A stretch of DNA of 64,000 bases from a virus. Its lineage: Duplodnaviria; Caudoviricetes. Below are positions 20,363 through 62,015 of this stretch, in pieces. The notes beneath the pieces are model-generated. The model was not told the origin of the DNA and did not search any database. It saw nothing but the letters and a program-made list of their open reading frames with translations. The DNA lies in the IMG/VR virus record IMGVR_UViG_3300032254_000001, positions 224,001-288,000 of that record, one strand, 5' to 3'. How positions within the stretch are numbered: the first letter of the stretch is position 1; each line of letters starts with the position of its first letter. The position numbers and the translations under genes are program-made.

Positions 20363-23300
20363 TTAGTACGAACCACCGTCTAAAGTGACATCTGGATCTA
20401 ATGTTGTACCTAAGTCTACTGGAGCTGGATCAACGCCATTTGACTGTAAGAATGTTACCGTACCTGCTACATTCTTAATCTTAACACCGCCTAAGTCAAT
20501 AGTTGTGCCTGATAAGTACAGATCTTTCCAACGATTAGTTAATGAACCTAAATCGTATGTTACGTCTGCTGATGGAATCATGTGTCCAGTTATATCAAAC
20601 TGTGTTGTGTTAGCTTGTATTGTAACACCACCGTCTGATACACCGTTAACACTTGTAGTAGTTGTTAACTCACGTACTTCAATAACATCGCCTGTTGCTG
20701 GAGCTTCAGTAAATGTTAATGTAGTACCAACAACACCGTAAGCTGTAGTTGGAAGCTGAACAACACCGTTAATGCTAACAATACATGAAGCAGTTGTTTG
20801 AGCACTTGCTAATGTAAATGCAGTTTCTAAATCATCACCTGCGAATGTTTCACTTGCAATGATTGTAAACTCTGTACCAAACGTTGCCCACACTGTGCCA
20901 TCAAAGAATTCATATTGATTAAACACTGTGTTATAACGCATCATACCAGCTATACCAACTGATGGACGTTCTAGTGTAGTACCAGTTGAAAGTATAGATG
21001 AAGTGTTGCCACCTACCTGGAACTCAACGTCTGTTAATATTGCTGCTGTACCAACGTTAACACTGTCTGAACCTGCATCAACAAATAATGCGTTAGCATT
21101 TCCGTTACCTTCAACGCGGAAGTTAAAATCACCGCCTGCATCGTTAATAGTAAGCTCTGTGCCCGCAGTTGCTGATATGTCATTACCATCAATAGTAACG
21201 TTATCAATTGCTGCTGAACCTGTTACAGTTACAACACCAGTCGCATTAATATCAGTTGTAGTTGTTAAACCAGTTACACCAAGTGTACCAGTTGTTGCAA
21301 CATTACCTGTTGTATCTGCTACTGTAAACGCACCAGCGTCTGCTGTAATACCACCGTTAAGTGTTGTTAAACCAGCTACTGTTAAAGTACCAGTAGATGC
21401 AACGTTACCAGTTGTATCTGCTACTGTAAACGCTGTTCCGTCTACTGCGATACCACCGTTAAGATTAGCTAGACCGCCAACTGTTGCTGTGCTTAATGTA
21501 GCCATTGCGCCAGTAGTACCATCAACTGTGAAGTTTGTACCATCTACTGCAATACCACCGTTAGCATTTAACAGAGCTGTCATTGTTGCTATACCAGTTA
21601 CACCAAGTGTACCAGCAATCTGAACGTTATCTGGTAAACCAATTGTTACTGTGTCTACACCTGTTACAACTTCAACTTCACTTGCTGTACCACTAAGTGT
21701 GAGTGTATCACCTCCTGATATTGTAGTTGGAGTAGTACCGTCTGTAAGTGTGAAACCAGTAGAAGCAGTTGCGTCTACGTATGCTTTAGTTGCTGCATCT
21801 TGTGCAAGTGCTGGATCTGCTAAGTTAGTAAGCTTGTTTGCGCCTGCATCAAATACTGAAAGTGCATCTAATGTTACTGCGCCAACTTGTAAGCCACCGT
21901 TTAAGTCAGTTAAACCAGTTACTGTTAATGTACCGTCTGTTGCAACATTACCTGTAACATCTGCTACAGTAAATGCAGTACCGTCTACAGCAATACCACC
22001 GTTTAGGCTAGCTAAACCAGCTGAGTCCATTGTACCAGCAACTACAGTATTACCGTTAGTTGTATCAACGCTAAATGTTGTGCCCGATGTGCCATCTTGT
22101 ATTAAGAATACATCACCTACGCCACCTGTTAATGTAACGTCGGCGCCAAATGTTACTGCACCGTCTGCGTTTAATGTACTTGCTGTGCTTACTGCACCAG
22201 TTGTACCGCTAACTGTAAAGTTTGAACTATCAACTGCAATACCACCGTCTAATGTTGCAAGACCAGCTGTATTTAAAGTACCAGCAATTGTTGTGTTACC
22301 TGTACCGTCTGCTACGATAAATGCATTTGTATCAACTGTGATGCCGCCGTTTAAAGCTGCGCCAGTTGTAACTGTTAATGCACCACCAATAGTAACGTCA
22401 TCTGGTAAACCAATTGTTAAAGTATCTGTTGCTGTTACCGCAACGTTAACTTCATTAGCTGTACCGTTTACTGTTAATGTATCACTACCAGCAATTACTT
22501 GTGGTGTAACACCATCTGTAATAGTCCAACCAGCTTCAACTAAGCTATCTACATAACCTTTGTTTGCTAAGTGTGCATCAAGTGATGGAGATGTTGCCCA
22601 TGATATAGAACCAATAGCTGCATCAACAGTGTAAGCACCGTCCATTGTATCGCCAGTGTTAAGTAACTTACCGTCTAATGCAGTTTGTAAACCATCTACG
22701 TTTGCAATGATATGTGCGTGACTATCGTCAACTACTGTTACCGTTAATGTGCCGCCAGCTAAGTCAGTCATTGTGATTGAACCAGTTGCGTCACCACCCA
22801 ATGTAATAACTGGATCTGGCTTATTAGTTGTGTTAGTCCAATCTAAGTAGTAAGTACCTTCTTGACCGTCTAATAAGTCTGCGTCTAAGAATGAGCCTGC
22901 ACCTTGTGGTGATACGTTTAAAGTATTACCGGCGTATTCTAAGTTAGTTCCTGCTGCAATACTGCCTGGACCAGTAATTTCTACCCAAGAATCTGTATCT
23001 GCGTTATACAAGTATGTGTGTCCATAATGCACTGAATCTGGATCAGAACATAAAACAGTAATACCTTGTACAATTTCTGTTTCGCCTGCTGCTAAACCAC
23101 TACGTCCTTCTGGGAAAGACCAACTTGCTGCTGTAGTTCCGTTACCTGTACCGGTGAACTCAATTAAATCGCCTTTCTTAATGTTATTTGTAACATCAAG
23201 CGCGGCACCGCTGCCAGCACCGCCGATGCCTGTTGCTACGAAGCTCACGCCAACTGTGTCAGCAGATGCGCCAATTGCTATAAAGTCTGTGGTACCAACT

Positions 23301-30461: not shown

Positions 30462-31286
30462 TTAGTCGATACCGTCAGCTTTATTTTGAGCTAAGATTTC
30501 ACGCTTGCGCATCATACGCTCAATTCTTGATTTTGACAGGTTGAAGAAATACTCTGCTACACGCTCATGCCAGTGATGGTCTGGGTGCATTCCATCACGT
30601 GCAAATGAATCTATCACAAATGGATTGTTATCGTGCATCTGAAAATTAGTCAGAGTTTCTATAACAGGATTAGAAAAGAATGTAGCAGCATGATTATTAT
30701 ACAAGCTCTCTACAAAGCTATAATTCTTGTTAAAGTTAAATGTTAAATAACTCTCATCTATCATAACCTTAGGAAAATGTTCGTTGTCAATAGCCGCTTG
30801 TATTACCTTATTATCGCCGTAAGGGGTTGGTAGTTCAAGTCTTGTAATTGGAGGCCAGTACACATACACTAAGTCAGGTTCCATATCCCTGTCTACTTTA
30901 TACAGTGTACGAGCAACATAATCTGTGCTTGCTCCGCTAGTTGCCAGGTTCCAGTTAGATGCAGTCTTACCTGTGAACTCTTGTATTTTAGCTTGTAGTC
31001 TAGCAGGCCATGTTTCTTCTTGCTTAACCCCAACACCAACTGTCATGCTGCATCCACATGCTACTATCCTAATGTCAGGCTCATCATAAAAACTATCGCC
31101 ACGATAACCATGTTCGTTGAATGTGTATGTAATGTCGCGCTCAAACTGTGCATGTTCTGGCTTATCTGTATCTAACCAATCCACTGTCATGTTAGGAGGA
31201 TACATTCCACTCATAGGAATCTCTTTTGCCCAGCCAGTTAATGCACTTGTGTTATGCAGGAATTGTCGTTGCTTCCATTTGCTCAT
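30462..31286 (-). CDS. SGNH/GDSL-hydrolase-like protein
   Basis: GCSMT.G.G block I, NLA.SGAS block II, DGMHP block V. Confidence 0.65.
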   Translation of the reverse strand: MSKWKQRQFLHNTSALTGWAKEIPMSGMYPPNMTVDWLDTDKPEHAQFERDITYTFNEHGYRGDSFYDEPDIRIVACGCSMTVGVGVKQEETWPARLQAKIQEFTGKTASNWNLATSGASTDYVARTLYKVDRDMEPDLVYVYWPPITRLELPTPYGDNKVIQAAIDNEHFPKVMIDESYLTFNFNKNYSFVESLYNNHAATFFSNPVIETLTNFQMHDNNPFVIDSFARDGMHPDHHWHERVAEYFFNLSKSRIERMMRKREILAQNKADGID

Positions 31287-31600
31287 ACACTAAAGCTCGT
31301 TCCACAACCGCATTGTGTTTTAGCTGCTGGATTTGATACAACAAATCGCTCGCCTTGTACATCTTTAGTGTAATCAAGTGTTGCCGTCTCAAGGTACTGA
31401 TAGCTCATTGGATCAATTAATACTACCGCACCTGTGTCATTAATAATGATATCGCCTTCGTCAATCTGTTCTGCGAATGCAAACACATAATTAAATCCAC
31501 TACAGCCACCGCCCGATATGCCAATTCGCATTGCCATTGCATTGTCTGTTTCATTAAGTAAATCAAATACTTTTTGTTCTGCTGCTTTTGTTAAATTCAT
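31283..31600 (-). CDS. iscA: A-type Fe-S cluster carrier (HesB/IscA/ErpA family)
   Basis: GGGCSGF.Y, NP.AK..CGCG.SF signature. Confidence 0.93.
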   Translation of the reverse strand: MNLTKAAEQKVFDLLNETDNAMAMRIGISGGGCSGFNYVFAFAEQIDEGDIIINDTGAVVLIDPMSYQYLETATLDYTKDVQGERFVVSNPAAKTQCGCGTSFSV

Positions 31601-31609
31601 AATATTTCT

Positions 31610-31810
31610 CTAGTTGTCACATGCGTTGTACGCTTTAATTAACGAGTCAAGTATTTCCTTATCGATCTCGTCTGCTATTCCCTTGGCCATTTGCTTGACT
31701 AAGATATCTCGAAAACTCATCGACATATCAAACTCGTCTTCGACCGGCGGTATGCCGTTCTTTAAACGGTCCCAAACTTCTGCTTTTTCTTTTGAAAGTT
31801 TCTTAGCCAT
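31610..31810 (-). CDS. WxxL-tagged small protein with major-capsid-like fragment
   Basis: EVWDRLK tag; MAKGIADEIDKEILDSL vs gp23 LAQEITAEIDQEILLSL. Confidence 0.75.
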   Translation of the reverse strand: MAKKLSKEKAEVWDRLKNGIPPVEDEFDMSMSFRDILVKQMAKGIADEIDKEILDSLIKAYNACDN

Positions 31811-31812
31811 AC

Positions 31813-32028
31813 TTATGATACTACTATCGGATCATCAGGAAATGCACTCACTAATTTCCATACTGTGCCAGTAAACACATATATCTGCGAATCGTCTTTA
31901 TTGTAAATCATTGCACCGGCTGCTGGCGGACCTGTCACTGAAGAATTCCAGCCGACTTCGGAAGTCTGCTTAATTCCGTTCTTTAAACGATCCCAAACTT
32001 CTGCTTGATCAGATGTTAGTTCTTTCAA
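31813..32028 (-). CDS. WxxL-tagged small protein with tail-fibre-like motif
   Basis: EVWDRLK tag; AGAMIYN....QIYVFTGTVW. Confidence 0.7.
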   Translation of the reverse strand: MKELTSDQAEVWDRLKNGIKQTSEVGWNSSVTGPPAAGAMIYNKDDSQIYVFTGTVWKLVSAFPDDPIVVS

Positions 32029-32404
32029 GTAGGTCTTCCTCTATTCTTTTCTGCTTATTCTCTTTACTAATATGATGAAGAAAGGCTGAGTGACTAACTT
32101 GCACTAAAAATCCAAATGGGTTATTGCTTTTAGTTGAGTCAAAATGCTGATATGAAATTAACATTTGCATAACCGCAGCTTGAACTAAATCATCTGCGTA
32201 CACTAGACTCTGATAATGTTTTCTGTGTAGTAGTCTATCCGCAAGTTCTATCATGTACTTGCCTAATGCTTGCGATACTTTGCCATCATTTTGTGCATAG
32301 TCTATAGCAATAAGCAAATCAGAATTGTTGTTGATTGGACCGTAATAGCCCCACGGGTCAACTAACTTATCCCATACTGCACGTTGGTCTTTATTCAACA
32401 GCAT
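32009..32404 (-). CDS. WxxL-tagged truncated gp55-like sigma factor paralogue
   Basis: AVWDKL tag; IELADR..HR.HY....YADDL..A......FDSTKSNNPFGF......AFL..I.KE.KQ aligns with the gp55 core at 60984..61961. Confidence 0.75.
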   Translation of the reverse strand: MLLNKDQRAVWDKLVDPWGYYGPINNNSDLLIAIDYAQNDGKVSQALGKYMIELADRLLHRKHYQSLVYADDLVQAAVMQMLISYQHFDSTKSNNPFGFLVQVSHSAFLHHISKENKQKRIEEDLLERTNI

Positions 32405-32711
32405 TGAGTTTGTCCCATATAGCTTCTTTCTCTAAGCGATCATGGAACTCAATCATTGCTGCTTTTCTTTCTTTCTTAAAAAGATCAAGTGCTATCTTGT
32501 GTGGGCAGTCCTCAGGGTACTCAGTTATGTTGTGTTCAGCTTCGCTTAAGCGACAAGAAACCCAAGTGTTGTCTGACTCGTAGTCCCTGCTGTGATCGCT
32601 TATGTGTAATGTTTCATCCCACTCGTAGTAATTTTTACATTCAAGTATATCTCTGCACATACTGTCATAATGTATTCTAAACATCTTTCCTCTGCTCTGC
32701 TGCAATTTCAC
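32391..32711 (-). CDS. Cys/His-containing WxxL-tagged protein
   Basis: ECK.Y.E.D..C..NI.EYPE.C.H; AIWDKL; paralogue of 33765..34031. Confidence 0.7.
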   Translation of the reverse strand: MKLQQSRGKMFRIHYDSMCRDILECKNYYEWDETLHISDHSRDYESDNTWVSCRLSEAEHNITEYPEDCPHKIALDLFKKERKAAMIEFHDRLEKEAIWDKLNAVE

Positions 32712-32937
32712 TAATTAATATATCAGCTAGTTCTTGTTCAACATCTATTCCGTGTAGGGACTCTAGGTCTTTAGCAACGTCAACAGTCCAACTAGCACGT
32801 AGCCTACGGGTCACAGGGCCAGTCTCCTTTAGGCGGTCCCAAACTTTTTCTTTCTCTCGTTGAATAGCTTCTTTCTGCTTCCGGATACCGTTGCGGATCT
32901 TTCGTTGGTTCACTTGTATTGCTGTCTCTTTCATCAA
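32677..32937 (-). CDS. WxxL-tagged small protein with major-capsid fragment
   Basis: KVWDRLK; TRRLRASWT..DLESLHGIDVEQE..EIAAE is 21/39 identical to gp23 residues 167-205. Confidence 0.8.
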   Translation of the reverse strand: MMKETAIQVNQRKIRNGIRKQKEAIQREKEKVWDRLKETGPVTRRLRASWTVDVAKDLESLHGIDVEQELADILISEIAAEQRKDV

Positions 32938-33166
32938 ACTTCCATTCTCCTAGTATATGTTTATTAAATTCTGTCATATCTTTAGTCAGACTGTCAATGT
33001 ATGCGTCTACTAAAGACCAATCGATCCCATACTTCTGGGGGAGTTGTGTTACCCCAGATAATTTCTTCCATATGGTCTCTTCTTCTTTTTGCAGCCGCTC
33101 TCTTTCTTTTCGCCTCTGCTCTTTTCTTTTTCCGCGGGTCCTGAAACGTTTCCGTCTTGAAGTCAA
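32804..33166 (-). CDS. Arg-rich WxxL-tagged protein
   Basis: TTG start with GGAGG SD; TIWKKL; N-terminus paralogous to the 33419 gene. Confidence 0.7.
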   Translation of the reverse strand: MTSRRKRFRTRGKRKEQRRKERERLQKEEETIWKKLSGVTQLPQKYGIDWSLVDAYIDSLTKDMTEFNKHILGEWKFDERDSNTSEPTKDPQRYPEAERSYSTRERKSLGPPKGDWPCDP

Positions 33167-33419
33167 AATGAAACCCTCCTACTGGTTCTATACCTGCTGT
33201 TTGTTCGCCCATTGGCTGTACACCAACTAAGTCGTCTGCAATCATTACAGGTGCTATGCGTCTCATTAACGGCATTAAAATAGCGCCAAGATCATCCCAA
33301 TCGTATTCAGGTGGTAGTGGCGGGCTAACATTTGTTAACTTGTTCCAAGTCTCTAACGACTCTTTCCTTAGTGCTTTACGCTTACCACGCTGCCTACGTC
33401 TGCGCCTGACACTAGTCAT
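32994..33419 (-). CDS. Arg-rich WxxL-tagged protein with Gol-like major-capsid fragment
   Basis: ETWNKL and EVWDRL tags; LGAILMPLMRRIAPVMIADDLVGVQPM is 14/27 identical to gp23 residues 57-83. Confidence 0.8.
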   Translation of the reverse strand: MTSVRRRRRQRGKRKALRKESLETWNKLTNVSPPLPPEYDWDDLGAILMPLMRRIAPVMIADDLVGVQPMGEQTAGIEPVGGFHFDFKTETFQDPRKKKRAEAKRKRAAAKRRRDHMEEIIWGNTTPPEVWDRLVFSRRIH

Positions 33420-33765
33420 CGTCGGTAATATCCTTAGGTTTAGGTTTCATTATTATAACATTATCATGCTCGTCGGACTTCTCGTATTTGTTCTTAATAC
33501 TATCTAACTTTTCTTCAAATGTGTCGCAGGCCCACTCGTTTAATTGATTGTATAAGTCAGCAGCACCAGGCGTCACAGTGTGTCTAAATGTTTCTGTTTT
33601 TGAATCATAATTGCTGATTATACGTTCTATTCGTATTACCCGCTTCCTGCGCCACCAAGACTTGAAATGAATAGTAAAAACATCATAAACCTTTGTGCCA
33701 ATCTTATGCTCCATTGTGTGCTCGAAGTATTCGATTTTATCAAAAAATTCTTTAGGTAGTATCAT
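33412..33765 (-). CDS. Hypothetical protein (no tag)
   Basis: 117-aa coupled ORF. Confidence 0.65.
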   Translation of the reverse strand: MILPKEFFDKIEYFEHTMEHKIGTKVYDVFTIHFKSWWRRKRVIRIERIISNYDSKTETFRHTVTPGAADLYNQLNEWACDTFEEKLDSIKNKYEKSDEHDNVIIMKPKPKDITDDD

Positions 33766-34031
33766 TATAGGACCTGTATATGTACTGGATCACGTAAAAG
33801 TGATTTTACTGTTCTATGGGGTTGATTCAATTTCTTCCACATTATATCTTGTTGCTTTGCTTTATCTTTCGCAATGGTAATATCTTCAAGGTGCAAACAA
33901 CCTTCTGGATATTTAATAATGTTAATCGTCACACCCATTACAATACAGGAATGACATTTACCAACCTGCATATCAAACTCTCTGTGGTACTTGCATTCCT
34001 TTGATTTACAAAATTCATTAAAGTTATACAT
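33765..34031 (-). CDS. Cys/His-containing WxxL-tagged protein
   Basis: ECKYH.EFD..C..NI.KYPEGC.H; IMWKKL. Confidence 0.7.
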   Translation of the reverse strand: MYNFNEFCKSKECKYHREFDMQVGKCHSCIVMGVTINIIKYPEGCLHLEDITIAKDKAKQQDIMWKKLNQPHRTVKSLLRDPVHIQVL

Positions 34032-35055
34032 GCTCTACAACTACTTTTACATTTGGAAACGGTGTTATAAACTGCCCACATGCAGACTGAATTTCAACTC
34101 CGGTTGAAATTTGTATCTTTAAATTATTGTGAAACTTTGCAAACTGCACAATAATTTCCTTAAAGCGATCGCTTTCTTCCATTTCGTTAGCATCACATCT
34201 GTTATAGCGTAGTACTCTGAACTCGTAGTCTTCTAGATTCCACTTAGTGATAAAATCAAACAATGCTTGCACTTCTTCTTCGCTATCGTTAACACCATCC
34301 ATAAACATATGATGGAATATTAAATTATGTTTGTTGTTGTCTGCGTACTTTAACAGCTTCGGCATTGCTTCTTCCAATGGCATAGCTCCAGGAATAATTT
34401 GATCCCTAGTCTCTTGTACTGCACTGTGCAACGAATAAAACAATCTAAATGGACTGCGCTGTATGTAATTGCCCATTGATGATTGTGCTTCACTATGCAC
34501 AACAACCTTGTTATTTGGATTAGTTCCAAATGATTTTAGGTCTTCATTGAGCTCGTGAAATATGTCAATCCAATCATCGTTTCTAATTTTAGGTAGCACT
34601 GTTGAAAGATCAACACCATCTAAGCCTGCTGCGTAGTTGTTATCTGTTACGTAGTTTAACACATCGTTGGTTGCTCTGTACACCCCTGCTGGGTTAAGAA
34701 TTGCTTCGCCCATGCCCATCCAGCATACTTTCATGTATCTGCTTGCTATGCTTGCATCGTGTTGCACTGCATGATCAATTGCATCAATAAGATTTGATTG
34801 CACTGTAGTAATTGGCAGCTTCTTGTAAGGCATTTCTTTCATTGTTAAGTAACAGAAGTCACACTGCATCGGGCATCCGCCGCTAATCGATGCGAACACT
34901 GAATACTTATTTCTGTTAATAGGATTCATTTCCAGTACACCAGTTACTGGATTTCTAATTGTGTCGCAGCTTGAAACAGTTTTTATTGCAGTTTCAGACG
35001 TGTCGCTATGCACATACTTTGTTACTAGTCCGTCATCTGATTCAAAAACTTCCAT
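34024..35055 (-). CDS. RlmN/Cfr-like radical SAM protein
   Basis: GCPMQCDFC, MGMGE, SLHSA, EI.SACGQ motifs. Confidence 0.85.
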   Translation of the reverse strand: MEVFESDDGLVTKYVHSDTSETAIKTVSSCDTIRNPVTGVLEMNPINRNKYSVFASISGGCPMQCDFCYLTMKEMPYKKLPITTVQSNLIDAIDHAVQHDASIASRYMKVCWMGMGEAILNPAGVYRATNDVLNYVTDNNYAAGLDGVDLSTVLPKIRNDDWIDIFHELNEDLKSFGTNPNNKVVVHSEAQSSMGNYIQRSPFRLFYSLHSAVQETRDQIIPGAMPLEEAMPKLLKYADNNKHNLIFHHMFMDGVNDSEEEVQALFDFITKWNLEDYEFRVLRYNRCDANEMEESDRFKEIIVQFAKFHNNLKIQISTGVEIQSACGQFITPFPNVKVVVEHV

Positions 35056-35290
35056 TGGTATTCCTCTTCAATGAGTCCGGGTGAATTATTTCGTTACGAA
35101 CTCTGTTGTTTTCTCTTTCCCTTGCTGCTTCCATCTCTGCTAGTATCTCGTCTTGGATGCGACGAACTGCTTCTTCCATACGTCCTACCATGTGTCGTAG
35201 CATCTCTTCCCATTCCGTGTCATGGATAGAAGGTTCTTCCTGCAGACCGTTCTTTAAGCGATCCCAGACTTCTTCTTGCTCTGTGTTCAT
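35042..35290 (-). CDS. WxxL-tagged small protein
   Basis: EEVWDRLKNG. Confidence 0.7.
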   Translation of the reverse strand: MNTEQEEVWDRLKNGLQEEPSIHDTEWEEMLRHMVGRMEEAVRRIQDEILAEMEAARERENNRVRNEIIHPDSLKRNTNGSF

Positions 35291-35472
35291 GCCGTTGTGT
35301 CCGATACTATTGTTATAGCCTTGTCAGCTCGAAGCACCTGTGTTGACCAATATATCGATCGATACATAAGTGGTTCAAATTTAACCTTAGGCTCTGGAAC
35401 ATGCTTAAGCTTTTCCCACACCAGTTCTTTATCACTGGGTTCTGCAGATGTTACTTTCTTGACTTTTGCCAC
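35287..35472 (-). CDS. WxxL-tagged small protein
   Basis: ELVWEKLKHVPEPK, shared with the 36567 gene. Confidence 0.65.
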   Translation of the reverse strand: MAKVKKVTSAEPSDKELVWEKLKHVPEPKVKFEPLMYRSIYWSTQVLRADKAITIVSDTTA

Positions 35473-35671
35473 TAAATTTTAATGCGAAAATTATCGCATC
35501 CTCCTTATACTCAAACCACCAACGTGTGTTAGTGTAATGGTGATAAAAACATCCACCATCTTGTTGTTCGACACACCACTTGTGAGCTTCTTTAATACAG
35601 TCACGACATGGTGGTGGAACAACAAACCATAATTCATTACGATGTTCCTTAGGTGGATTACACCACTTCAC
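35432..35671 (-). CDS. Small 'W.FE..DA..F.LK' family protein
   Basis: KWC...WWFEYKEDAIIFALKF. Confidence 0.7.
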   Translation of the reverse strand: MKWCNPPKEHRNELWFVVPPPCRDCIKEAHKWCVEQQDGGCFYHHYTNTRWWFEYKEDAIIFALKFSGKSQESNICRTQ

Positions 35672-35919
35672 TCATCTTTACCTACTACCACATACTCGAC
35701 GCTAGATACGCCGTCACCTAAATCTTTGTGTACTAATTTAGTTTCCACCTTACCTCCTCGCATATCAGCGAACAGTTGCGATGCTTTTTTAAGTTCTTCT
35801 TCTGTGTTCTCTACTTCTTTCCAATTCGAAGCCTTGCTCAGCTTTTCCCACATTAATTCCTTATCGTCATCTTCTGTAGTCTTGCCAAGAAGTATTCTTT
35901 TAAAACGTTCTAAGTTCAT
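35668..35919 (-). CDS. WxxL-tagged small protein
   Basis: ELMWEKLS. Confidence 0.7.
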   Translation of the reverse strand: MNLERFKRILLGKTTEDDDKELMWEKLSKASNWKEVENTEEELKKASQLFADMRGGKVETKLVHKDLGDGVSSVEYVVVGKDE

Positions 35920-36143
35920 TTGTCGATTGTACTCTCAATATCGAAATACATTGTTTTACCAGCTCCGCGTCGTGCTGCTATTACAACCAATTCACCTTTG
36001 CCAACACCACCACACAATGCTCTACCTAATTGCTGTTGGTACCATGTTAGGCCGTTGCCATTAAATGGTGGTACATACTCTGTGGATAACTTTTCCCACA
36101 TTAGTTCCTGCTCAGCGGCTTTTGAGGATTTTGATTGTGACAT
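35916..36143 (-). CDS. WxxL-tagged protein with isolated P-loop (Walker A) fragment
   Basis: ELMWEKLS; GG...GELVVIAARRGAGKT. Confidence 0.75.
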   Translation of the reverse strand: MSQSKSSKAAEQELMWEKLSTEYVPPFNGNGLTWYQQQLGRALCGGVGKGELVVIAARRGAGKTMYFDIESTIDK

Positions 36144-36567
36144 TATTTGGATCCACCTCTTCTTTAGAAATACTTAGTATAGTGTCCATCATGCTCGGAT
36201 ATAATGAACTAATGTCATTATCAAACGTGCTACCCTTAGGCTGTGGAACATGTTTAAGCTTTTCCCAAACTTCTGCCTTTTCCTCTTCGATCTTCTGTAA
36301 TAAAATTTTAGCTTTAACACGGGTACCAAACACAGGACTTTTTGCAGCTTCCTGCAAGTCTGCTATCTCCATGCGGATCCGGTTGTCATGCTCCTCATCA
36401 GTATCAGTAATCATCCTAAGTCTAGCTTTTGCTCGTAGCCTAATGCCCATTGAATCATCCTTACTAAGGATTTTAAGATATTCCGGGCCATTGTTCATTA
36501 GCTCTATCTTCTCAGCTTCAGACATTGCCATTATTCTAATTTGGTCAAACAGATCAACTTCACTCAT
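36112..36567 (-). CDS. WxxL-tagged protein with DNA polymerase B motif-A fragment
   Basis: EVWEKLK; DISSLYPSMM. Confidence 0.75.
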   Translation of the reverse strand: MSEVDLFDQIRIMAMSEAEKIELMNNGPEYLKILSKDDSMGIRLRAKARLRMITDTDEEHDNRIRMEIADLQEAAKSPVFGTRVKAKILLQKIEEEKAEVWEKLKHVPQPKGSTFDNDISSLYPSMMDTILSISKEEVDPNNVTIKILKSR

Positions 36568-36797
36568 TTAAATTTTAATGCAAACAATGTTGCATCCTCT
36601 TCGTTTTCAAAATACCAATATGTTTCTCTAAATTCCACGTCCGCTTTATTTTCTTTATACCTGCGATAATATTGCCCTGATGAATTATGTCCTGTGCACC
36701 ATGATCCTTCCGCAGTATACGATCTAGATGCATGTCTAACTAATGTCACTTTATTCCACGGGTGGCCGTTAACATCGCCTATATCTTTATATTCCAC
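36564..36797 (-). CDS. Small 'W.FE..DA..F.LK' family protein
   Basis: WC..WYFENEEDATLFALKF. Confidence 0.7.
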   Translation of the reverse strand: MEYKDIGDVNGHPWNKVTLVRHASRSYTAEGSWCTGHNSSGQYYRRYKENKADVEFRETYWYFENEEDATLFALKFK

Positions 36798-37540: not shown

Positions 37541-37569
37541 ATTATAGCAAGTTTTGGAGGGATGGTCAA
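37541..37569 (-). promoter_or_regulatory. Early sigma70 promoter TTGACC-17-TATAAT
   Basis: Heads the coupled operon containing the tagged genes. Confidence 0.8.
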
Positions 37570-37808
37570 TCAGTTTTGGTGTCATCGAGTGTAATGTTAA
37601 CGCTTAAATAGGGGAATTCGGTGTCATCTACGTACTCAACATCGTACGGCTTTTCAATTGTGCAATCGGTACTTAAAAAGGCATCTACTGCCGTCTGTTC
37701 CTCTATGGATAATACCTCATCCTGGAAAAGCCATATATCCATAACCGATTCGAATCCACCGTGCTTAATAAGAAGCAGTGTCATTAGGTGTTCCTGTTCT
37801 GGAGTCAT
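37566..37808 (-). CDS. Small 'L.(L/I)K(Y/H)G' family protein
   Basis: TLLLIKHGGFE..MDIWL; promoter TTGACA-17-TAACAT at 37856-37884. Confidence 0.65.
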   Translation of the reverse strand: MTPEQEHLMTLLLIKHGGFESVMDIWLFQDEVLSIEEQTAVDAFLSTDCTIEKPYDVEYVDDTEFPYLSVNITLDDTKTD

Positions 37809-37880: not shown

Positions 37881-38033
37881 TCAATGGCTGTTCTTTATAT
37901 GCACGTCAAAACCTTCTTTTTCATGCTCGTAATATACAGGAGTATTGTTCAAAATCTTTGCTATTGAATGTGCAAACTCTCTGTCTTCTGTCATTAGTCG
38001 TACGAATGTTGCTTTAAGCTCTTCGTCACTCAT
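37881..38033 (-). CDS. Small hypothetical protein (50 aa)
   Basis: Not in track. MSDEELKATFVRLMTEDREFAHSIAKIL... Confidence 0.5.
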   Translation of the reverse strand: MSDEELKATFVRLMTEDREFAHSIAKILNNTPVYYEHEKEGFDVHIKNSH

Positions 38034-38247
38034 CTTCATTATCTGTATCCTTTGGATTATCGTATAGTTTGTTAAACTCTTTCTTTACATCTAAAACAAG
38101 ATTTGGTAATATTTTTATTGCATGTTCACCTAGTACTTCCTTCTGGGCATCACTGAACTGTTCTTTATCGTACAACCATATACAGAATGCGTTCTCTATA
38201 CTGCCGTACTTCAAAATTAAAAATGTTTTAACATCATCTTCACTCAT
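38026..38247 (-). CDS. Small 'LILKYG' family protein
   Basis: TFLILKYGSIENAFCIWL. Confidence 0.7.
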   Translation of the reverse strand: MSEDDVKTFLILKYGSIENAFCIWLYDKEQFSDAQKEVLGEHAIKILPNLVLDVKKEFNKLYDNPKDTDNEDE

Positions 38248-38447
38248 TTGCGTCTGGTCTCTGCAAAGAATATATTAATAGCATCGTGCAAGTGAGCGGG
38301 CATTTTATCGTGTGTATTGATCCACATATGGAATGCTTTGTCCAAATTGCCGTATTTTAATATTAAATATGATTCTATATTATCCATAGTTATCGGTCCC
38401 GGGTGATACGCTGTTCGCGTTACTAGCGTAACACACTCGTCTACCAA
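38244..38447 (-). CDS. Small 'LILKYG' family protein (true start probably MDNIES)
   Basis: SYLILKYGNLDKAFHMWI. Confidence 0.65.
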   Translation of the reverse strand: MVDECVTLVTRTAYHPGPITMDNIESYLILKYGNLDKAFHMWINTHDKMPAHLHDAINIFFAETRRK

Positions 38448-38465: not shown

Positions 38466-38678
38466 TCATTTTAAGTCATCTTTTAGTGTAACACTTACTG
38501 GATATTTAATACCATCTTTGGTATGCTCTAATATCATGTGTGCTAGTTCGGATATAGTAGGATCTGGGTCGTTCTTAAATACATCAAGATGCTTACCATA
38601 ACGTACCATTATGAACTTTTCTTCAAACGGTAAGGAGTAGTACTTGATGTGATCAAATACATTTGATTCATTTGCCAT
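38466..38678 (-). CDS. Small hypothetical protein
   Basis: FIMVRYG, weakly like the LILKYG family. Confidence 0.6.
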   Translation of the reverse strand: MANESNVFDHIKYYSLPFEEKFIMVRYGKHLDVFKNDPDPTISELAHMILEHTKDGIKYPVSVTLKDDLK

Positions 38679-38847
38679 TATCTTTATCTCTTTGATCTAA
38701 ATAATCGTTAAGTGCTTTTACTGCTTCCGTTAAGTTGTCCTTATTTCTATCAGTATTGTATTTCTGGATTATATCCAATTTTTGTTCCGTTGTTAGGTAT
38801 TCCTTATTAAGGTTTTCCCATGTTTCTTCTTCAGGTGTTTTAGCCAT
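38668..38847 (-). CDS. Small WxxL-like tagged protein (59 aa)
   Basis: Not in track. MAKTPEEETWENLNKEY...; follows the promoter at 38886-38914. Confidence 0.6.
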   Translation of the reverse strand: MAKTPEEETWENLNKEYLTTEQKLDIIQKYNTDRNKDNLTEAVKALNDYLDQRDKDNGK

Positions 38848-38885: not shown

Positions 38886-38958
38886 AGTATAACAATTTAA
38901 AATGCGTTTGTCAACCTTATCGTAATATTTGACTTATACCCATTTTGCATGTTACACT
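38886..38958. promoter_or_regulatory. Back-to-back sigma70 promoters
   Basis: Minus: TTGACA-17-TATACT (38914-38886). Plus: TTGACT-18-TACACT (38929-38958). Confidence 0.7.
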
Positions 38959-39053: not shown

Positions 39054-39284
39054 ATGAATGTAGTACCCGGAGCATCTATAACAGCTATTAAAGATTCGTA
39101 CTTTATGGTTGAAGCACGTACTCCTTTTGAGCGTGATGGCGAATTATATCCATGGTGTAAGAATCACGATAGCGAAGGATATTTCAATTATGCTAATCGC
39201 TACTCTAGTGGCGGTAACGTCCGACCACAGTTTTGGTTTGAGTTAGAAGCTGATGCTATGTTGTTTAAGTTGAAATTCGCATGA
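39054..39284 (+). CDS. Small 'W.FE..DA..F.LK' family protein
   Basis: WC...FWFELEADAMLFKLKF. Confidence 0.7.
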   Translation: MNVVPGASITAIKDSYFMVEARTPFERDGELYPWCKNHDSEGYFNYANRYSSGGNVRPQFWFELEADAMLFKLKFA

Positions 39285-39628
39285 GACTTATAATAGCTGG
39301 AAGCAGACACTTAACACTTGATGTAGAAGGCATACAGGCCTTTATTAACTATTTAGGTATTACAGATATAACCGAAGTAGTGTGTGGCATGGCGCCTGGT
39401 ATTGATGCTGCTGGAAAATTATGGGCAGAATCTAATAACATTCCAGTTGAGCCGTTTCCTGCAGAGTGGGAGACGTACGGCAAAGCTGCTGGGCATATAC
39501 GCAATAAGCAAATGGCAGACTACGGTGATGAACTACTAGTAATTTGGAACGGTAAGTCTCCGGGTTCTCGTAATATGAAGACCACAATGGAAAAATTGGG
39601 CAAAAAGGTACACGAAGGCACATTCTAA
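39281..39628 (+). CDS. SLOG-superfamily protein (DUF2493/YspA-like)
   Basis: IIAGSR, G.A.G.D, FPA.W..YGKAAG..RN.QM, W.G.S.G motifs. Confidence 0.8.
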   Translation: MRLIIAGSRHLTLDVEGIQAFINYLGITDITEVVCGMAPGIDAAGKLWAESNNIPVEPFPAEWETYGKAAGHIRNKQMADYGDELLVIWNGKSPGSRNMKTTMEKLGKKVHEGTF

Positions 39629-39810
39629 TGACAAACGATTACCCATACAAAGTTAGATTTAAATGGCGTTACGGTGAAATGCTAAAGGATCTTTCTGCAT
39701 GGTGTAATGAGAATTGCACCGGCGAATATCAGTATCAATACACTGCTTCAGTGTTTTGGTTTAAAGAGTCTAAGGATGCAATGATGTTTAAACTGGCTAA
39801 CAACTTATGA
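39628..39810 (+). CDS. Small 'W.F...DA..F.L' family protein
   Basis: WC...FWFKESKDAMMFKL. Confidence 0.65.
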   Translation: MTNDYPYKVRFKWRYGEMLKDLSAWCNENCTGEYQYQYTASVFWFKESKDAMMFKLANNL

Positions 39811-52296: not shown

Positions 52297-54099
52297 TTAT
52301 TTTTCGGTGTAATCTTTATTAAGCCACGACGTCACTTCTTCTATACAAGTGTTAGGGTGGCTGTCTAATATAAATTCTATTGTTTTAATAACATCTGCAC
52401 ACGGTGTTCCGTTGCCTGTCCAACTATCTCTGCTTCTGCTTAGTGGTGTATCAAGTCTGTCAAAGTTAATTAAAGATGTTTTAAACGGTACTAAGTTATC
52501 TTTGAATGCTCGTGTGCATTGTTTGCTGGCATGTTCTAGAGCTGCTTTACTAACACGATAACGTTCAAATGATGGGTCTGGCGCAACTATATCCTTAAGA
52601 CCTGTGCTGCCTATGTTTATAATATGCCCCTGCTTATTTGCTGCTTTCCATGCATCGTATACAGCAATTAACAAGTTGACTTGTGCGAAGTTACTATGCG
52701 CTTCGCCTGCAGGACCATCAAATGCATTATTAATGAATACATCGTAATTAAGTGATTCTTGCACTATACGATCTATGTCGTATGGGTTAGTAATGTCTGC
52801 TTGCATGTCGGAATCTTCAGAGCGAGAAACGTTTACGCCTCTGAAGTGATTAATTAGTTCTAACCCTAATCCTCTATTTCCGCCTGTGATTAAATATTTG
52901 TTGCCCTGTGGTTCCAATTGATCCCATACCTTGTAAAATTCTTTACCACAAGTTAAAGCACATTCAAATAAACGTCCTTCTCCTAGTGGCTTGTTAAAAC
53001 TGTCTGTGACTTCTGTCCAGAACGGCTGTTTCATTATGTCAGCTAGTGTGTTGTGCTGTATACTTAATGTATTAAATGCATCATGCCTATTAAACAGATC
53101 CCGTATTTGATTTTCACCATTAGGTAAGAATGCCATATCGCTAGCACCAGGGAGTATATCCCTGTCATGGAAGCGAGCATCGTATAAATTATGATTGAAA
53201 AAGTTGCACGGCATAACAAGCCCATTGGCTGTTACTAATAATTTGCTTTTCTGGTTCTCACCATTGCCGTGGTGCGTACATAATGCATCGCATGTAATTG
53301 GTGTGCTACTAAAATACTTATGTAGATCATCATTATACTTGTCTTTAAGCTTTGGTAAATGTACCATGCTCTTATTTCGGTGGTCAAGCTCAGCAGGGTA
53401 TTCGATGTTGTATTCAACGTTGCCTGCTTTATCTTCTTTAGGCCATTGCTTAAGCTCACTGAAGTTGTTATATTCTAGGAATCTACCTGTAGAACGTTGA
53501 TTAAAAGATTCGAAGCCTATTAATGCTGCAAGCATACTAGCTTCTGCTACTTGGTGTTCGTTGTGCTTAAACACAATGAAATTCCATGCAGCTTTACCAC
53601 CTGCACGAATAAACGCTTCTGCATTTGTTATAATCTTATCGAAATCTGTATTACAGCGATACAAGTGATTTGTATCTTTAAGCCCATCTATGTTAAATTC
53701 TACTTTACCGTGTTCGCCAATGATCTCTGCAAGTTCTGCCCACCATTCGGTTTTACGTGCGCCACCATTTGTGTGTATTAAGATCCACAATGTGGGGTTT
53801 TTAGCACGAAAATCACGTAAAATATCTAAGAACTCTGGGTGTACAATTGGATCACCGTACCCTCCGCAGAAGAATATCTGGCGTAAATTAGCACAGATCT
53901 CTTTAGTAAAAGCTGTGTCAATGCATTCACGTGACAAGTGTTCTTTAACGATATGTGGGTTTTCTTTGCCACCATTTAAGTTCCTTGGGCACTGCGGACA
54001 CGCCGCATTGCAGAAATTAGTAATCTCTAGCTGGAACTCATCTACATTGTCTAGTTTAAATTTCAGGGAGGTCACCATCGTCAAAGAAGTCTTTAGCAC
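52297..54099 (-). CDS. Radical SAM domain fused to a short-chain dehydrogenase/reductase
   Basis: CNAACPQC, F.GG.GDP, TNG; C-terminal ITGGNRGLG, NNA, YRVSK. Confidence 0.85.
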   Translation of the reverse strand: MLKTSLTMVTSLKFKLDNVDEFQLEITNFCNAACPQCPRNLNGGKENPHIVKEHLSRECIDTAFTKEICANLRQIFFCGGYGDPIVHPEFLDILRDFRAKNPTLWILIHTNGGARKTEWWAELAEIIGEHGKVEFNIDGLKDTNHLYRCNTDFDKIITNAEAFIRAGGKAAWNFIVFKHNEHQVAEASMLAALIGFESFNQRSTGRFLEYNNFSELKQWPKEDKAGNVEYNIEYPAELDHRNKSMVHLPKLKDKYNDDLHKYFSSTPITCDALCTHHGNGENQKSKLLVTANGLVMPCNFFNHNLYDARFHDRDILPGASDMAFLPNGENQIRDLFNRHDAFNTLSIQHNTLADIMKQPFWTEVTDSFNKPLGEGRLFECALTCGKEFYKVWDQLEPQGNKYLITGGNRGLGLELINHFRGVNVSRSEDSDMQADITNPYDIDRIVQESLNYDVFINNAFDGPAGEAHSNFAQVNLLIAVYDAWKAANKQGHIINIGSTGLKDIVAPDPSFERYRVSKAALEHASKQCTRAFKDNLVPFKTSLINFDRLDTPLSRSRDSWTGNGTPCADVIKTIEFILDSHPNTCIEEVTSWLNKDYTEK

Positions 54100-54580
54100 T
54101 GTTTAGCACGTCTTTACTTGTCTTGAATACAGTACCATCAAGATTAGGCCCGTTCTGCCTTGACTGTATCAGCCAATCGATAGCAGGGTAGAATATTTGT
54201 AGTTTCCACTGTCCGTTAAAGCCTAGGTACAAGTTAGGGGTAATAGATGCAGGATTCTCATCTGAGTTAAAATCGTATATTGGCCAAAACACACCGCTGT
54301 TAAGCTCTTCTAATGTAAGCTCGACATCGTCTAGCTTTATAGATTTAATGTATACGTGCTTATCTGCAATAACATTACCGATAGCATCGTATTCGTGATC
54401 GTGTATTGTTTTACCAAAGTGTGTAATAATTAAGTAGTGTTCGCCACTAACTAAATTAATGTCTGCTTCAATGTGATCAGGACAATCACCCTCACACAAT
54501 ACATCGTAGTCGCCTACTTGTATTTTAATTTTTGGGTTGCCGAGCTTACGCTCAACTGCAAAATCGATTTCAATTTTCAA
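54056..54580 (-). CDS. Hypothetical protein in the radical SAM operon
   Basis: 174 aa, coupled. Confidence 0.7.
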   Translation of the reverse strand: MKIEIDFAVERKLGNPKIKIQVGDYDVLCEGDCPDHIEADINLVSGEHYLIITHFGKTIHDHEYDAIGNVIADKHVYIKSIKLDDVELTLEELNSGVFWPIYDFNSDENPASITPNLYLGFNGQWKLQIFYPAIDWLIQSRQNGPNLDGTVFKTSKDVLNSAKDFFDDGDLPEI

Positions 54581-60983: not shown

Positions 60984-61961
60984 TTATGAATCGTCAGTTT
61001 TCTTTTTGTTGGGGTTACACAAGTTATAATCGTATGCAAAGTCTTCTTTCTTGCCTTCGTTTGCAAACTGTCTAGTCCAACTAGGTGTTAGTCCGTTAGC
61101 TTCGAGAATATCATCACGTATATTTTGCATCTTCTTCTCAATGTTTAGTACACGAGTAAAGCTGTTAGTCACTGCGGCAGTGTAGTACGCAAATGGGTTC
61201 TGTGATTTAAGTTCATTAAACTGTAGCCCAATCTGTGATAGCTGCAATAACGCTTGTCCTTGCATCTCATCGTTATACGTATACCCACGCCAGTTACTAC
61301 GTGTGCCATAACGTTCGCATAGCTTTATGTACATCATAGCTAAGTTATTTGTAGTTCTGCCATGATCTTTGGTAAACTTGCCTTCTTCGATATCGCCCTT
61401 CCAGTGTGATTTACCTACTATTTCTGCAGATAGCTCACCATCTGTGTCTGTTACACGGTAATGGAAGAATGGAGGGAAGTTAACACGCATTGGTATCATT
61501 TCAACATCTGGATCAGTTGGTGATAATGATTGATCATCGTCAGTTTCGATTAGTTCGTCAAATACTGCGTTTGCTTTTGCTTGTTTCGCTGCTTTAGCTA
61601 ATGCCGCTTTTGATTTCTTCTTAGGCACTAGCGGAATGTGCTCATTGGTCATAACACGGAATACAACATCATGCAGTTCAACGTCTGCTACATCTGTCGG
61701 TATTTCTAACTTAGTGAGTCGTGTTGCTCGTGCTTGTCTAGCTAAATCAACGACGGGTACGTCTTTGAATGTAGGGTTACCGTTTTCGTCTTTGCCGACA
61801 TCAACGTTCTGTGTTCCCCAAATTTCTTCTAGTGATTCTACTATGAAGTCTTGCTGATTGTCCTCAACTTTATCTTTAAAGGAACAATATGATATTTTGC
61901 TTAGGTGTATTTCTTTAAGCATATCCTTATTATTTAAGTAATTCTTTTTTCTCTTAGCCAT
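60984..61961 (-). CDS. gp55: Late transcription sigma factor
   Basis: NYLNNKDML.EI; L.ERY..R.NWRGYTY.DEM; F.E.KS.NPFAYYT; start MAKRKK after GAGGA. Confidence 0.93.
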   Translation of the reverse strand: MAKRKKNYLNNKDMLKEIHLSKISYCSFKDKVEDNQQDFIVESLEEIWGTQNVDVGKDENGNPTFKDVPVVDLARQARATRLTKLEIPTDVADVELHDVVFRVMTNEHIPLVPKKKSKAALAKAAKQAKANAVFDELIETDDDQSLSPTDPDVEMIPMRVNFPPFFHYRVTDTDGELSAEIVGKSHWKGDIEEGKFTKDHGRTTNNLAMMYIKLCERYGTRSNWRGYTYNDEMQGQALLQLSQIGLQFNELKSQNPFAYYTAAVTNSFTRVLNIEKKMQNIRDDILEANGLTPSWTRQFANEGKKEDFAYDYNLCNPNKKKTDDS

Positions 61962-61987
61962 AAAATCCTCGTTGCTGTAGTGCATAC

Positions 61988-62015
61988 AGTATAACATGAT
62001 GTGCGTATTTGTCAA
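61988..62015 (-). promoter_or_regulatory. Sigma70 promoter TTGACA-16-TATACT for gp55
   Basis: Near-consensus hexamers. Confidence 0.65.

Follow-up and report, generated by a model that had tools for sequence, protein, structure and literature searches.

The stretch of DNA analysed here, the window, comprises 64 kb and represents positions 224001-288000 of a 344,483-bp virus record that has direct terminal repeats. On its minus strand, at 31610-36567, it harbours an array of small genes which share a short tryptophan-containing peptide, the tag, and our data show that these genes form an operon of modular microproteins, in which an adaptor and a linker are combined with a fragment derived from the phage itself. 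Among the further products of the window are a T4-type portal, a prohead protease, a scaffold, a sheath, long fibres and gp23. The latter shares 62-67% identity with its counterparts in Sinorhizobium phage Phosso, Vibrio phage 2.275.O, PA5oct, Salmonella phage Munch and Serratia phage BF, which identifies the virus as a jumbo phage whose T4 core is distant. The public sequencing runs that contain the region are microbial-mat metagenomes only, RNA runs containing it were not found among public runs, and a search of phage records for near-identical DNA gave no match.

The tag and the genes that carry it

The array genes abut or overlap, as stated in a preliminary description of this DNA, and each copy of the tag listed there, including the outlier in the gene 38668..38847, is present in the gene concerned. 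Their Shine-Dalgarno sequences are weak or absent. In the following, the segment joined to the tag is referred to as the payload, and the full-length protein that it resembles as its parent. In the order of transcription, the promoters and tagged genes are these (aa, amino acids):

38886..38914, minus strand: sigma70-like promoter, TTGACA-17-TATACT with TG, 11/12 matches
38668..38847, minus strand: first gene of the operon, with the outlier tag-like sequence E-E-T-W-E-N-L (hidden Markov model of the tag, E=1.2e-4)
37541..37569, minus strand: second sigma70-like promoter, TTGACC-17-TATAAT with TG, 11/12 matches
36112..36567, minus strand: 151-aa gene; N-terminal part of unknown kind, internal tag with its W at 36265-36267
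35916..36143, minus strand: 75-aa gene; tag and DnaB-type Walker A segment (35946-36038)
35668..35919, minus strand: 83-aa gene; tag and a payload without detectable parent
35287..35472, minus strand: 61-aa gene; tag and a payload without detectable parent
35042..35290, minus strand: 82-aa gene; N-terminal tag and a charged, probably helical payload without detectable parent
33765..34031, minus strand: 88-aa gene; four-Cys zinc-ribbon-like domain, long C-terminal helix ending in the tag
32994..33419, minus strand: 141-aa gene; Arg/Lys-rich N-terminus, tag, counterpart of the gp23 Gol region (33192-33290)
32804..33166, minus strand: 120-aa gene; basic N-terminus as in the 141-aa gene, tag, payload without detectable parent
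32677..32937, minus strand: 86-aa gene; long basic helix ending in the tag, flexible linker, gp23 segment (32680-32811)
32391..32711, minus strand: 106-aa gene; paralogous zinc-ribbon-like domain, tag at the extreme C-terminus
32009..32404, minus strand: 131-aa gene; N-terminal tag and gp55-type sigma region 2 core (32021-32293)
31813..32028, minus strand: 71-aa gene; tag and tail-fibre-type motif G-x-x-[YF]-[FN]-...-Y-x-[FY]-[DT]-G-x-x-W (31849-31917)
31610..31810, minus strand: 66-aa gene; tag and gp23 helix segment with E-I-D-x-E-I-L (31634-31720)

The 66-aa gene closes the array and directly precedes an ErpA-like gene. Three consecutive tagged genes (32677-33419, minus strand) overlap by 172 and 133 nucleotides (nt) in different frames and in purine-rich stretches encoding Lys and Arg; the 172-nt overlap is that of the tail of the 141-aa gene with the next gene, and this tail encodes a second E-V-W-D-R-L, out of frame with that gene, which may be a relic, a chance occurrence or a sign of recoding.

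A six-frame translation of the window contains the core of the tag, W-[DEKN]-[RK]-L, at 14 sites, all of which are on the minus strand and within 31774-36267. The whole 344-kb genome has 34 matches, compared with 13.3 in shuffled sequences, and 14 of the 34 are concentrated in the 4.5 kb of the array; a 21-column profile of the tag finds 15 genome sites at E<=0.005, 13 of them in the array. An alignment of 38 instances from three genomes gives the fuller consensus L-x-K-[ED]-[KQ]-[ED]-x-[VIM]-W-[DE]-[RK]-L-K-[NH]-[GV]-x-P, with prolines common at +8 to +10 and with D, E, K or N at residue +1 of the tag itself. The codons beneath the tag differ synonymously (gaccgttta, gatcgctta, gataagtta, gaaaagctt and others), i.e. 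selection acts on the peptide and not on a DNA repeat, which speaks against a recombination cassette operating at the DNA level. The tag is not found at the extreme N-terminus of each protein, as would be expected of T4-type capsid-targeting cargo; rather, its Trp is located at residues 8-101, or 8-24 residues ahead of the C-terminus.

Several other explanations of the tag were also discarded: a clamp-binding motif (the phage's own PolB ends in ..F-G-N-L-F-E-F), a ribosome-arrest peptide (the distance from the tag to the stop codon or the prolines varies) and, for want of support, an N-degron and a split-gene or frameshift fusion. Phylogenetic profiling for a partner of the tag, i.e. for genes shared with a 250-kb relative and absent from Vibrio phage 2.275.O, left 207 candidates and was uninformative. 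Tagged proteins are also encoded outside the array, at genome positions 20880-21266, 92936-93262 and 53866-54111 (all minus strand); the first has 128 aa, a C-terminal tag and an N-terminus that by eye resembles a DNA-binding domain, and one, of 108 aa, has kept its tag in the 250-kb relative.

In the AlphaFold2 (AF2) model of the 86-aa protein, a confident helix (residues 5-37) ends in the tag and is followed by a disordered stretch (38-50) and two looser helices (51-60 and 65-83). As its predicted template modelling score is 0.35, the protein is, according to this model, a displayed peptide and not globular. The 88-aa zinc-ribbon member is modelled with a predicted local distance difference score of 90 and has the tag within its C-terminal helix (48-68); a fold search with this model against PDB and AFDB clusters returned nothing below E=1. 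Its zinc-ribbon-like family comprises 83 clusters at 50% identity, 12 of which (about 20 by a looser reading by eye) have the same tag at the end, as a K/E-rich tail with [IVM]-W-x-[KR]-L. In the shortest members the helix of the tag is no longer than about ten residues, so that the tag resembles a motif docking onto a folded partner more than it does a coiled coil.

Eight metagenomic homologues of the 86-aa gene (32677..32937), with 79-108 aa and 60-82% identity, as well as the zinc-ribbon member gave access to further array-bearing contigs, designated here by L numbers. The same kind of array is present in five or six uncultured relatives. The order array, ErpA-like gene, GDSL/SGNH-like gene is maintained in L005-7, L008-10, L024, L023 (the 250-kb contig) and L056-57; in L059, tagged genes are directly followed by the GDSL/SGNH-like gene. 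A search of large-phage genomes with the tag profile, as envisaged in the preliminary description, found 10 and 8 sites in two records of relatives and none in Vibrio phage 2.275.O, Phosso, PA5oct and Munch, i.e. in cultured phages related by their gp23, with 15 sites in the phage's own genome as a control. The system therefore belongs to a narrower, uncultured clade. Related loci searched with the 86-aa family returned genuine gp23 genes only.

Payload parentage, conservation and neighbouring genes

Parents of the payloads were sought with payload-only profiles, for which the tags were removed; built from orthologous payloads, these profiles were searched against all 1895 six-frame open reading frames (ORFs) of the genome. 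The best non-self hits were the following:

Gol-type payload: own gp23, residues 58-96, E=7.5e-14
Helix with E-I-D (66-aa gene): own gp23, residues 189-219, E=3.4e-5
F-Y-C-P-Y-x-P payload, in relatives only: own gp23, residues 331-346, E=5.7e-4
P-loop payload: own DnaB-like helicase, residues 161-191, E=8.9e-6
Fibre-motif payload: 486-aa fibre-like protein, E=3.6e-6
Beta-rich payload, in relatives only: repeats of a 4373-aa FG-GAP protein, E=5.6e-9
PolB-A payload: own PolB, residues 389-400, E=0.016, weak

These matches fall exactly on the conserved motifs of the phage's own parent proteins. That such profiles find the parents at all is due to the payload orthologues, which across six lineages keep exactly the residues conserved in the parent families. 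Altogether, 7 of the 14 tagged array genes have a detectable parent, in agreement with the initial proposal that fragments of core phage proteins are present in at least seven genes. In a genome-wide control, 3 of 13 small array genes match a protein of at least 300 aa from the same genome at E<1e-3, as against 4 of 313 other small genes, and the fragment similarities exceed those of shuffled sequences as well. For four genes (35287-35472, 35668-35919, 35042-35290 and 32804-33166) no parent was detected, even in the payload-profile search, and for the 82-aa gene among these (35042..35290) a tblastn search of phage records also gave no match. In two more (33765-34031 and 32391-32711) a zinc-ribbon-like domain takes the place of the fragment and the tag is at the C-terminal end.

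The major capsid protein is the most frequent parent. The three different gp23 segments noticed at the outset are recovered by Pfam Gp23 in the 86-aa gene (E=5e-12; profile positions 147-190, aligning to T4 gp23 residues 262-303), in the 141-aa gene (E=5e-6; profile positions 6-37, aligning to T4 gp23 residues 91-123) and in the 66-aa gene (E=0.027, with the match raised to 3.4e-5 by the orthologue profile), and matches to the PHROG major head family among array genes reach 2e-11 and 7.5e-6. Residues 91-123 of T4 gp23 are what we take to be the Gol region (residues ~93-122). A fourth gp23 segment is found among the tagged genes of relatives.

The gp55-type sigma core in the 131-aa gene was likewise borne out (Sigma70_r2, 1e-6; PHROG late sigma phrog_234, 1e-16, at profile positions 35-125 of 181). 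Compared with the genuine late sigma factor of 343 aa (60984-62015), this mini-sigma is missing both the N- and the C-terminal part; it is 24% identical to that gp55-like protein of the phage itself and 31-32% identical to cyanophage gp55, and retrieved only itself in a word-based homologue search. Tagged orthologues exist in L023 (tblastn 1e-27) and L056, and in L024 by eye only.

The P-loop of the 75-aa gene, originally described as of helicase or terminase type, turned out to be of the DnaB type (PHROG DnaB-like helicase, 4.8e-5; Pfam DnaB_C, 0.009) and not of the terminase type, and its parent is confirmed as DnaB_C at 4e-21. The tail-fibre motif of the 71-aa gene (DUF2793, 0.006), which has orthologues in six lineages, leads to a fibre-like parent with a weak match to the Peptidase_G2 chaperone domain. 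As for PolB motif A, the assignment is weak by its E value, though the match does fall on the phage's own motif A: after its tag, the 151-aa gene (36112..36567) carries a motif-A-like D-I-S-S-L-Y-P-S (36193-36216) and a conserved V-T-I-K-[IV]-L-K tail, with its best local match at 390-397 of the own PolB, and its orthologues in relatives begin at the tag. Local alignments of four of five PolB-type payloads, which form two families, land on motif A, and for one such alignment of 35 residues 0 of 300 shuffles reach its score. The 4373-aa protein is encoded at genome positions 295462-308583 (plus strand) and combines FG-GAP repeats with beta domains of ~65 aa arranged in tandem; isolated copies of this domain occur as tagged mini-proteins in L008, L024, L056 and L023 and nowhere in the array of this phage. 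Identity between payloads and parents is 24-52% for the phage's own and 31-55% for the best foreign ones; judged by these values, the payloads are copies taken long ago from proteins of the phage lineage itself.

Overall, the array family is conserved and under purifying selection. Fusions of the tag to the gp23 helix, the fibre motif, gp23 147-190, the Gol-type segment, the P-loop, PolB-A and sigma are orthologous across lineages, as is that to the zinc ribbon; the tag-fragment combination is thus itself conserved. The 66-aa gene has orthologues in six lineages, the 106-aa zinc-ribbon gene in L008, L024 and L005, and the 120-aa gene, a paralogue of the 141-aa gene, has an L005 orthologue with 41% identity (E=2.6e-23); even in the first operon gene (38668..38847) W-x-x-L is kept in the L005 and L023 orthologues. 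In six lineages, tagged ORFs have been kept in frame together with their tag, the amino-acid identities being 35-70%, and neutral evolution is contradicted by ratios of nonsynonymous to synonymous substitution rates (dN/dS) of 0.10-0.36 in seven of nine L008/L024 pairs (~82% nucleotide identity, with dS partly saturated); for the 66-aa gene dN/dS is 0.095. In addition, payloads differ between relatives behind one conserved N-terminal tag module (L023_9772, L008_8001, L008_8613), as is expected for a modular, fast-turning repertoire. The anatomy originally proposed, with a shared tag, a linker and one core-protein segment per gene, has thereby been supported and extended.

Other genes accompany the array. 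Upstream of the tagged genes, the same operon contains three small paralogues (37566-37808, 38026-38247 and 38244-38447, minus strand) with a core [IL]-L-K-Y-G-[SN]-[IL]-[ED]-x-A-F-x-[IM]-W-[LI] in the latter two and a looser version in the first. A second family of small genes (~60-80 aa; 35432-35671 and 36564-36797 on the minus strand, 39054-39284 and 39628-39810 on the plus strand) is interleaved with and located beside the array; its members share the C-terminus [FW]-[WY]-F-E-x-x-E-D-A-x-x-F-x-L-K-F (pairwise E 1e-6 to 2e-4) and have no Pfam or PHROG match. In the middle of the operon, 34024-35055 (minus strand) encodes a Cfr/RlmN-like radical S-adenosylmethionine (SAM) RNA methyltransferase (NCBIfam CfrAB 1e-17, RlmN 1e-16, C-terminal half only), which is present in the L008/L024 lineage and absent from the L005 and L056 arrays. 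In all of the longer related contigs, the array is bounded downstream by a pair of genes, for an ErpA-type Fe-S insertion protein (31283-31600, minus strand; NCBIfam 1.4e-40, above cut-off) and, following it, a weakly recognizable GDSL/SGNH-like hydrolase (30462-31286, minus strand). A SLOG-family protein (39281-39628; YAcAr, Pfam 1.2e-8) is encoded between the array and gp23, in the divergent plus-strand cluster located there, and a second radical-SAM protein (52297-54099, minus strand; 600 aa, with a weakly short-chain dehydrogenase-like C-terminal part) is encoded among replication and recombination genes.

Possible functions of the tagged fragments

As for the timing of expression, there are only two gaps upstream of the array, and each holds a sigma70-like promoter with 11/12 matches: 38886..38914 is situated in the 206-nt divergent intergenic region upstream of the first operon gene, and 37541-37569, with its TG extension, is the promoter-like site that had already been pointed out. 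A late-promoter motif of the TATAAATA type was not found between 30.4 and 39 kb, and the ..TAAATAGGAG.. leaders present on structural genes are missing from the array genes. Because of these features, expression of the array is predicted to be early, which is a reasonable inference and probably correct.

The explanation to which we incline, if tentatively, is that the array encodes early-made competitive mimics of protein fragments on a common adaptor helix. The adaptor is a charged helix of ~12-18 residues with [VIM]-W-[DE]-[KR]-L-K at its end, behind which a linker containing proline is usually found, and it is joined to one short piece (10-100 residues) of a late or replication protein of the lineage's own. 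These pieces stem from gp23 (several segments), the gp55-type sigma core, the P-loop of the DnaB-like helicase, a tail-fibre repeat, PolB motif A (by a weak match) and, in relatives, the repeat domain of the 4373-aa structural protein. Each fragment may occupy the site of whatever recognizes the conserved element in the full-length or nascent parent, and the shared tag would link all fragments to one common partner or fate. As the mini-proteins would be made before their parents, the most likely targets would be host factors or abortive-infection sensors that read immutable motifs, with Lit/EF-Tu reading gp23 Gol as the model case. Within gp23 the Gol region, 29 residues long, is the segment with the highest conservation; it binds EF-Tu and triggers Lit (PMC3014915). 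Essential proteins can be inhibited in vivo by fragments of themselves (PMC9245647, PMC10769210). A decoy function fits the likely early expression, payloads that represent the least mutable motifs, and the occurrence of a Gol-peptide counterpart among them. More broadly and more doubtfully, the jumbo-phage clade may keep a modular library of such mimics, made early, that pre-empts host sensors or sabotages the assemblies of rivals, with the tag delivering bound targets to a common partner, which could be a protease, a sequestering hub or a location. Such a library would be evolvable, its repertoire turning over by payload swapping, and would be akin to fragment-inhibitor and targeted-degradation designs.

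Several points weigh against such mimicry. With four genes lacking a detectable parent and two having a zinc-ribbon-like domain, a fragment is not universal among the tagged genes, and with payloads only 24-55% identical to any parent, precise mimicry is only putative. Moreover, most payloads are buried core elements (the P-loop, the polymerase palm motif, a capsid helix segment), which a 30-residue peptide would not reproduce as a folded surface and which a fold-sensing receptor would therefore not see in it. Finally, it is by expression of the gene 23 Gol region that Lit becomes activated in T4 (PMC3014915), and a mimic true to Gol should therefore set off Lit and not block it.

Alternatively, the fragments could act as dominant-negative poisons that insert into or cap the assemblies of their parents (capsid lattice, helicase hexamer, fibre trimer, sigma-RNA polymerase) in co-infecting or resident related phages, or that delay late functions of the phage itself for as long as the operon is active, with the tag setting turnover or location of the fragments. 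Every identified parent does work in an oligomer or complex, the mini-sigma retains region 2 without the rest, expression is probably early, and lineage-specific payloads such as the fibre repeat and the giant-protein repeat point at kin phages or self and not at host sensors. Where essential oligomeric proteins are concerned, fragments are known to act as dominant-negative inhibitors (PMC9245647, PMC10769210). However, self-poisoning would be avoidable only by timing because the phage's own proteins carry the same motifs, identity to own and foreign parents is similarly low, and several payloads are intramolecular core elements and not interfaces. As an explanation of the array as a whole we consider this unlikely; as to the role of the fragments, host-sensor decoys and dominant-negative poisons are equally good candidates.

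It seems somewhat more unlikely still that only the tag matters, i.e. as a docking motif for one host or phage protein, and that the C-terminal pieces are recombination leftovers exapted as variable bodies, whose resemblance to core proteins reflects their origin and not their function. In the 86-aa family, conservation is indeed higher in the tag and the preceding helix than in the payload, payload swapping occurs among relatives, and the tag is also present on zinc-ribbon-like domains, on the protein from genome positions 20880-21266 and on payloads without a parent. Mere leftovers, however, would be hard to reconcile with payload orthologues that retain the parent-conserved residues in six lineages, with low dN/dS over whole genes and with four different gp23 blocks retained independently.

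We regard as improbable that the tag resembles the signal of the T4 internal proteins and directs the mini-proteins via the scaffold into the prohead, to be injected along with the DNA into the next host. The array is located ~1.5 kb from the head-gene cluster (portal, protease, scaffold, gp23), and the T4 gp23 propeptide contains a loosely similar W-x-x-L-x-x-G. Yet the tag is internal or C-terminal instead of extreme N-terminal, and no consistent [LI]-x-E cleavage site for the prohead protease recurs after it in the 38-instance alignment, where K-[NH]-[GV]-x-P is found instead. The promoters are of the sigma70 type, with no late motif, and the tag profile has no match in the phage's own gp23 or scaffold or in the T4 gp23 N-terminus. 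Against PDB sequences, including full-length T4 gp23, it gives a chance-level match only, which leaves the idea that the tag is a copy of the gp23 propeptide unsupported.

Hardly any probability remains for precursors resembling those of ribosomally synthesized and post-translationally modified peptides, in which the tag would be the leader for the embedded radical-SAM enzyme and the variable ends would be modified cores. Many tandem small genes with a leader-like conserved motif, variable ends and a radical-SAM gene (34024-35055) in their midst do recall such systems, but they are disfavoured on several grounds: the would-be maturase is Cfr/RlmN-like (NCBIfam 1e-17) and, being absent from the L005 and L056 arrays, is dispensable to the array; the tag is C-terminal in two families, on a folded zinc-ribbon-like domain, so that the order of N-terminal leader and C-terminal core is not kept; the would-be cores are homologous to core phage proteins; and neither a protease nor an exporter is encoded nearby. 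Lastly, that the array is debris, i.e. remnants, within a hyperplastic region, of core genes that were duplicated and are now in decay, may be suggested by its short overlapping ORFs (three neighbouring ones by 133-172 nt) and weak ribosome-binding sites but is refuted by the conservation in frame with the tag over six lineages at 35-70% amino-acid identity and by dN/dS well below 1, and the fragments are not collinear with any parent gene.

Comparison with known systems

No comparable system was found in literature searches, but single aspects of the array do have counterparts. In the 141-aa gene, the payload corresponds to T4 gp23 residues 91-123 by alignment and thus recalls the triad of Gol, EF-Tu and the Lit protease of e14. 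In T4, however, Gol is part of gp23 and triggers suicide of the host, whereas here its counterpart is free-standing, tagged and probably early, with binding to EF-Tu only putative. The late sigma factors of the gp55 type are represented by a region 2 core and not in their complete length, since the match of the 131-aa gene ends at position 125 of 181.

In the T4 internal proteins IPI, IPII and IPIII and in Alt, unrelated small proteins likewise share one address peptide and the repertoire varies between relatives. Their capsid-targeting sequence occupies the very N-terminus and is removed by cleavage after [LI]-x-E, and these proteins are constituents of the head. The tag of the array, in contrast, is internal or C-terminal and has no cleavage motif, the promoters are of an early type, and the bodies are fragments of the phage's own core proteins. 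T4 also produces Srh and Srd, small early proteins that resemble segments of the host sigma32 and sigma70 and are proposed mimics. As early mini-proteins resembling a sigma fragment, they have their nearest counterpart here in the 131-aa tagged sigma core. Unlike the array genes, however, they are single genes without a shared tag, resemble host and not phage proteins, and are unaccompanied by fragments of capsid, polymerase, helicase or fibre proteins.

Thus, no described system explains the shared tag or the retained gp23 blocks. Whatever their function, one conserved helical tag is common to a dozen probably early proteins and to a widespread zinc-ribbon-like family, and several separate blocks of gp23 have been retained independently. 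If the payloads do act as mimics, the array would be the first natural case, in a virus, of a whole panel of fragment inhibitors or decoys on one adaptor, and would show which motifs of phage core proteins host immunity or competitors 'read' in infected cells. It would also provide ready peptide probes for capsid, polymerase, helicase, sigma and fibre interactions, and a natural model for designed fragment inhibitors.

Finally, eukaryotic microProteins such as LITTLE ZIPPER and the Id proteins, together with experimentally derived dominant-negative fragments, are small proteins related to one piece of a larger protein, and the same is true of the tagged proteins described here. MicroProteins and derived fragments act, or are thought to act, by competing for the interactions of the parent (PMC7584889, PMC9245647, PMC10769210). 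The phage differs in having a dozen of them in one operon, from at least five parents and all on one adaptor helix, with an inhibitory action that is here only proposed.

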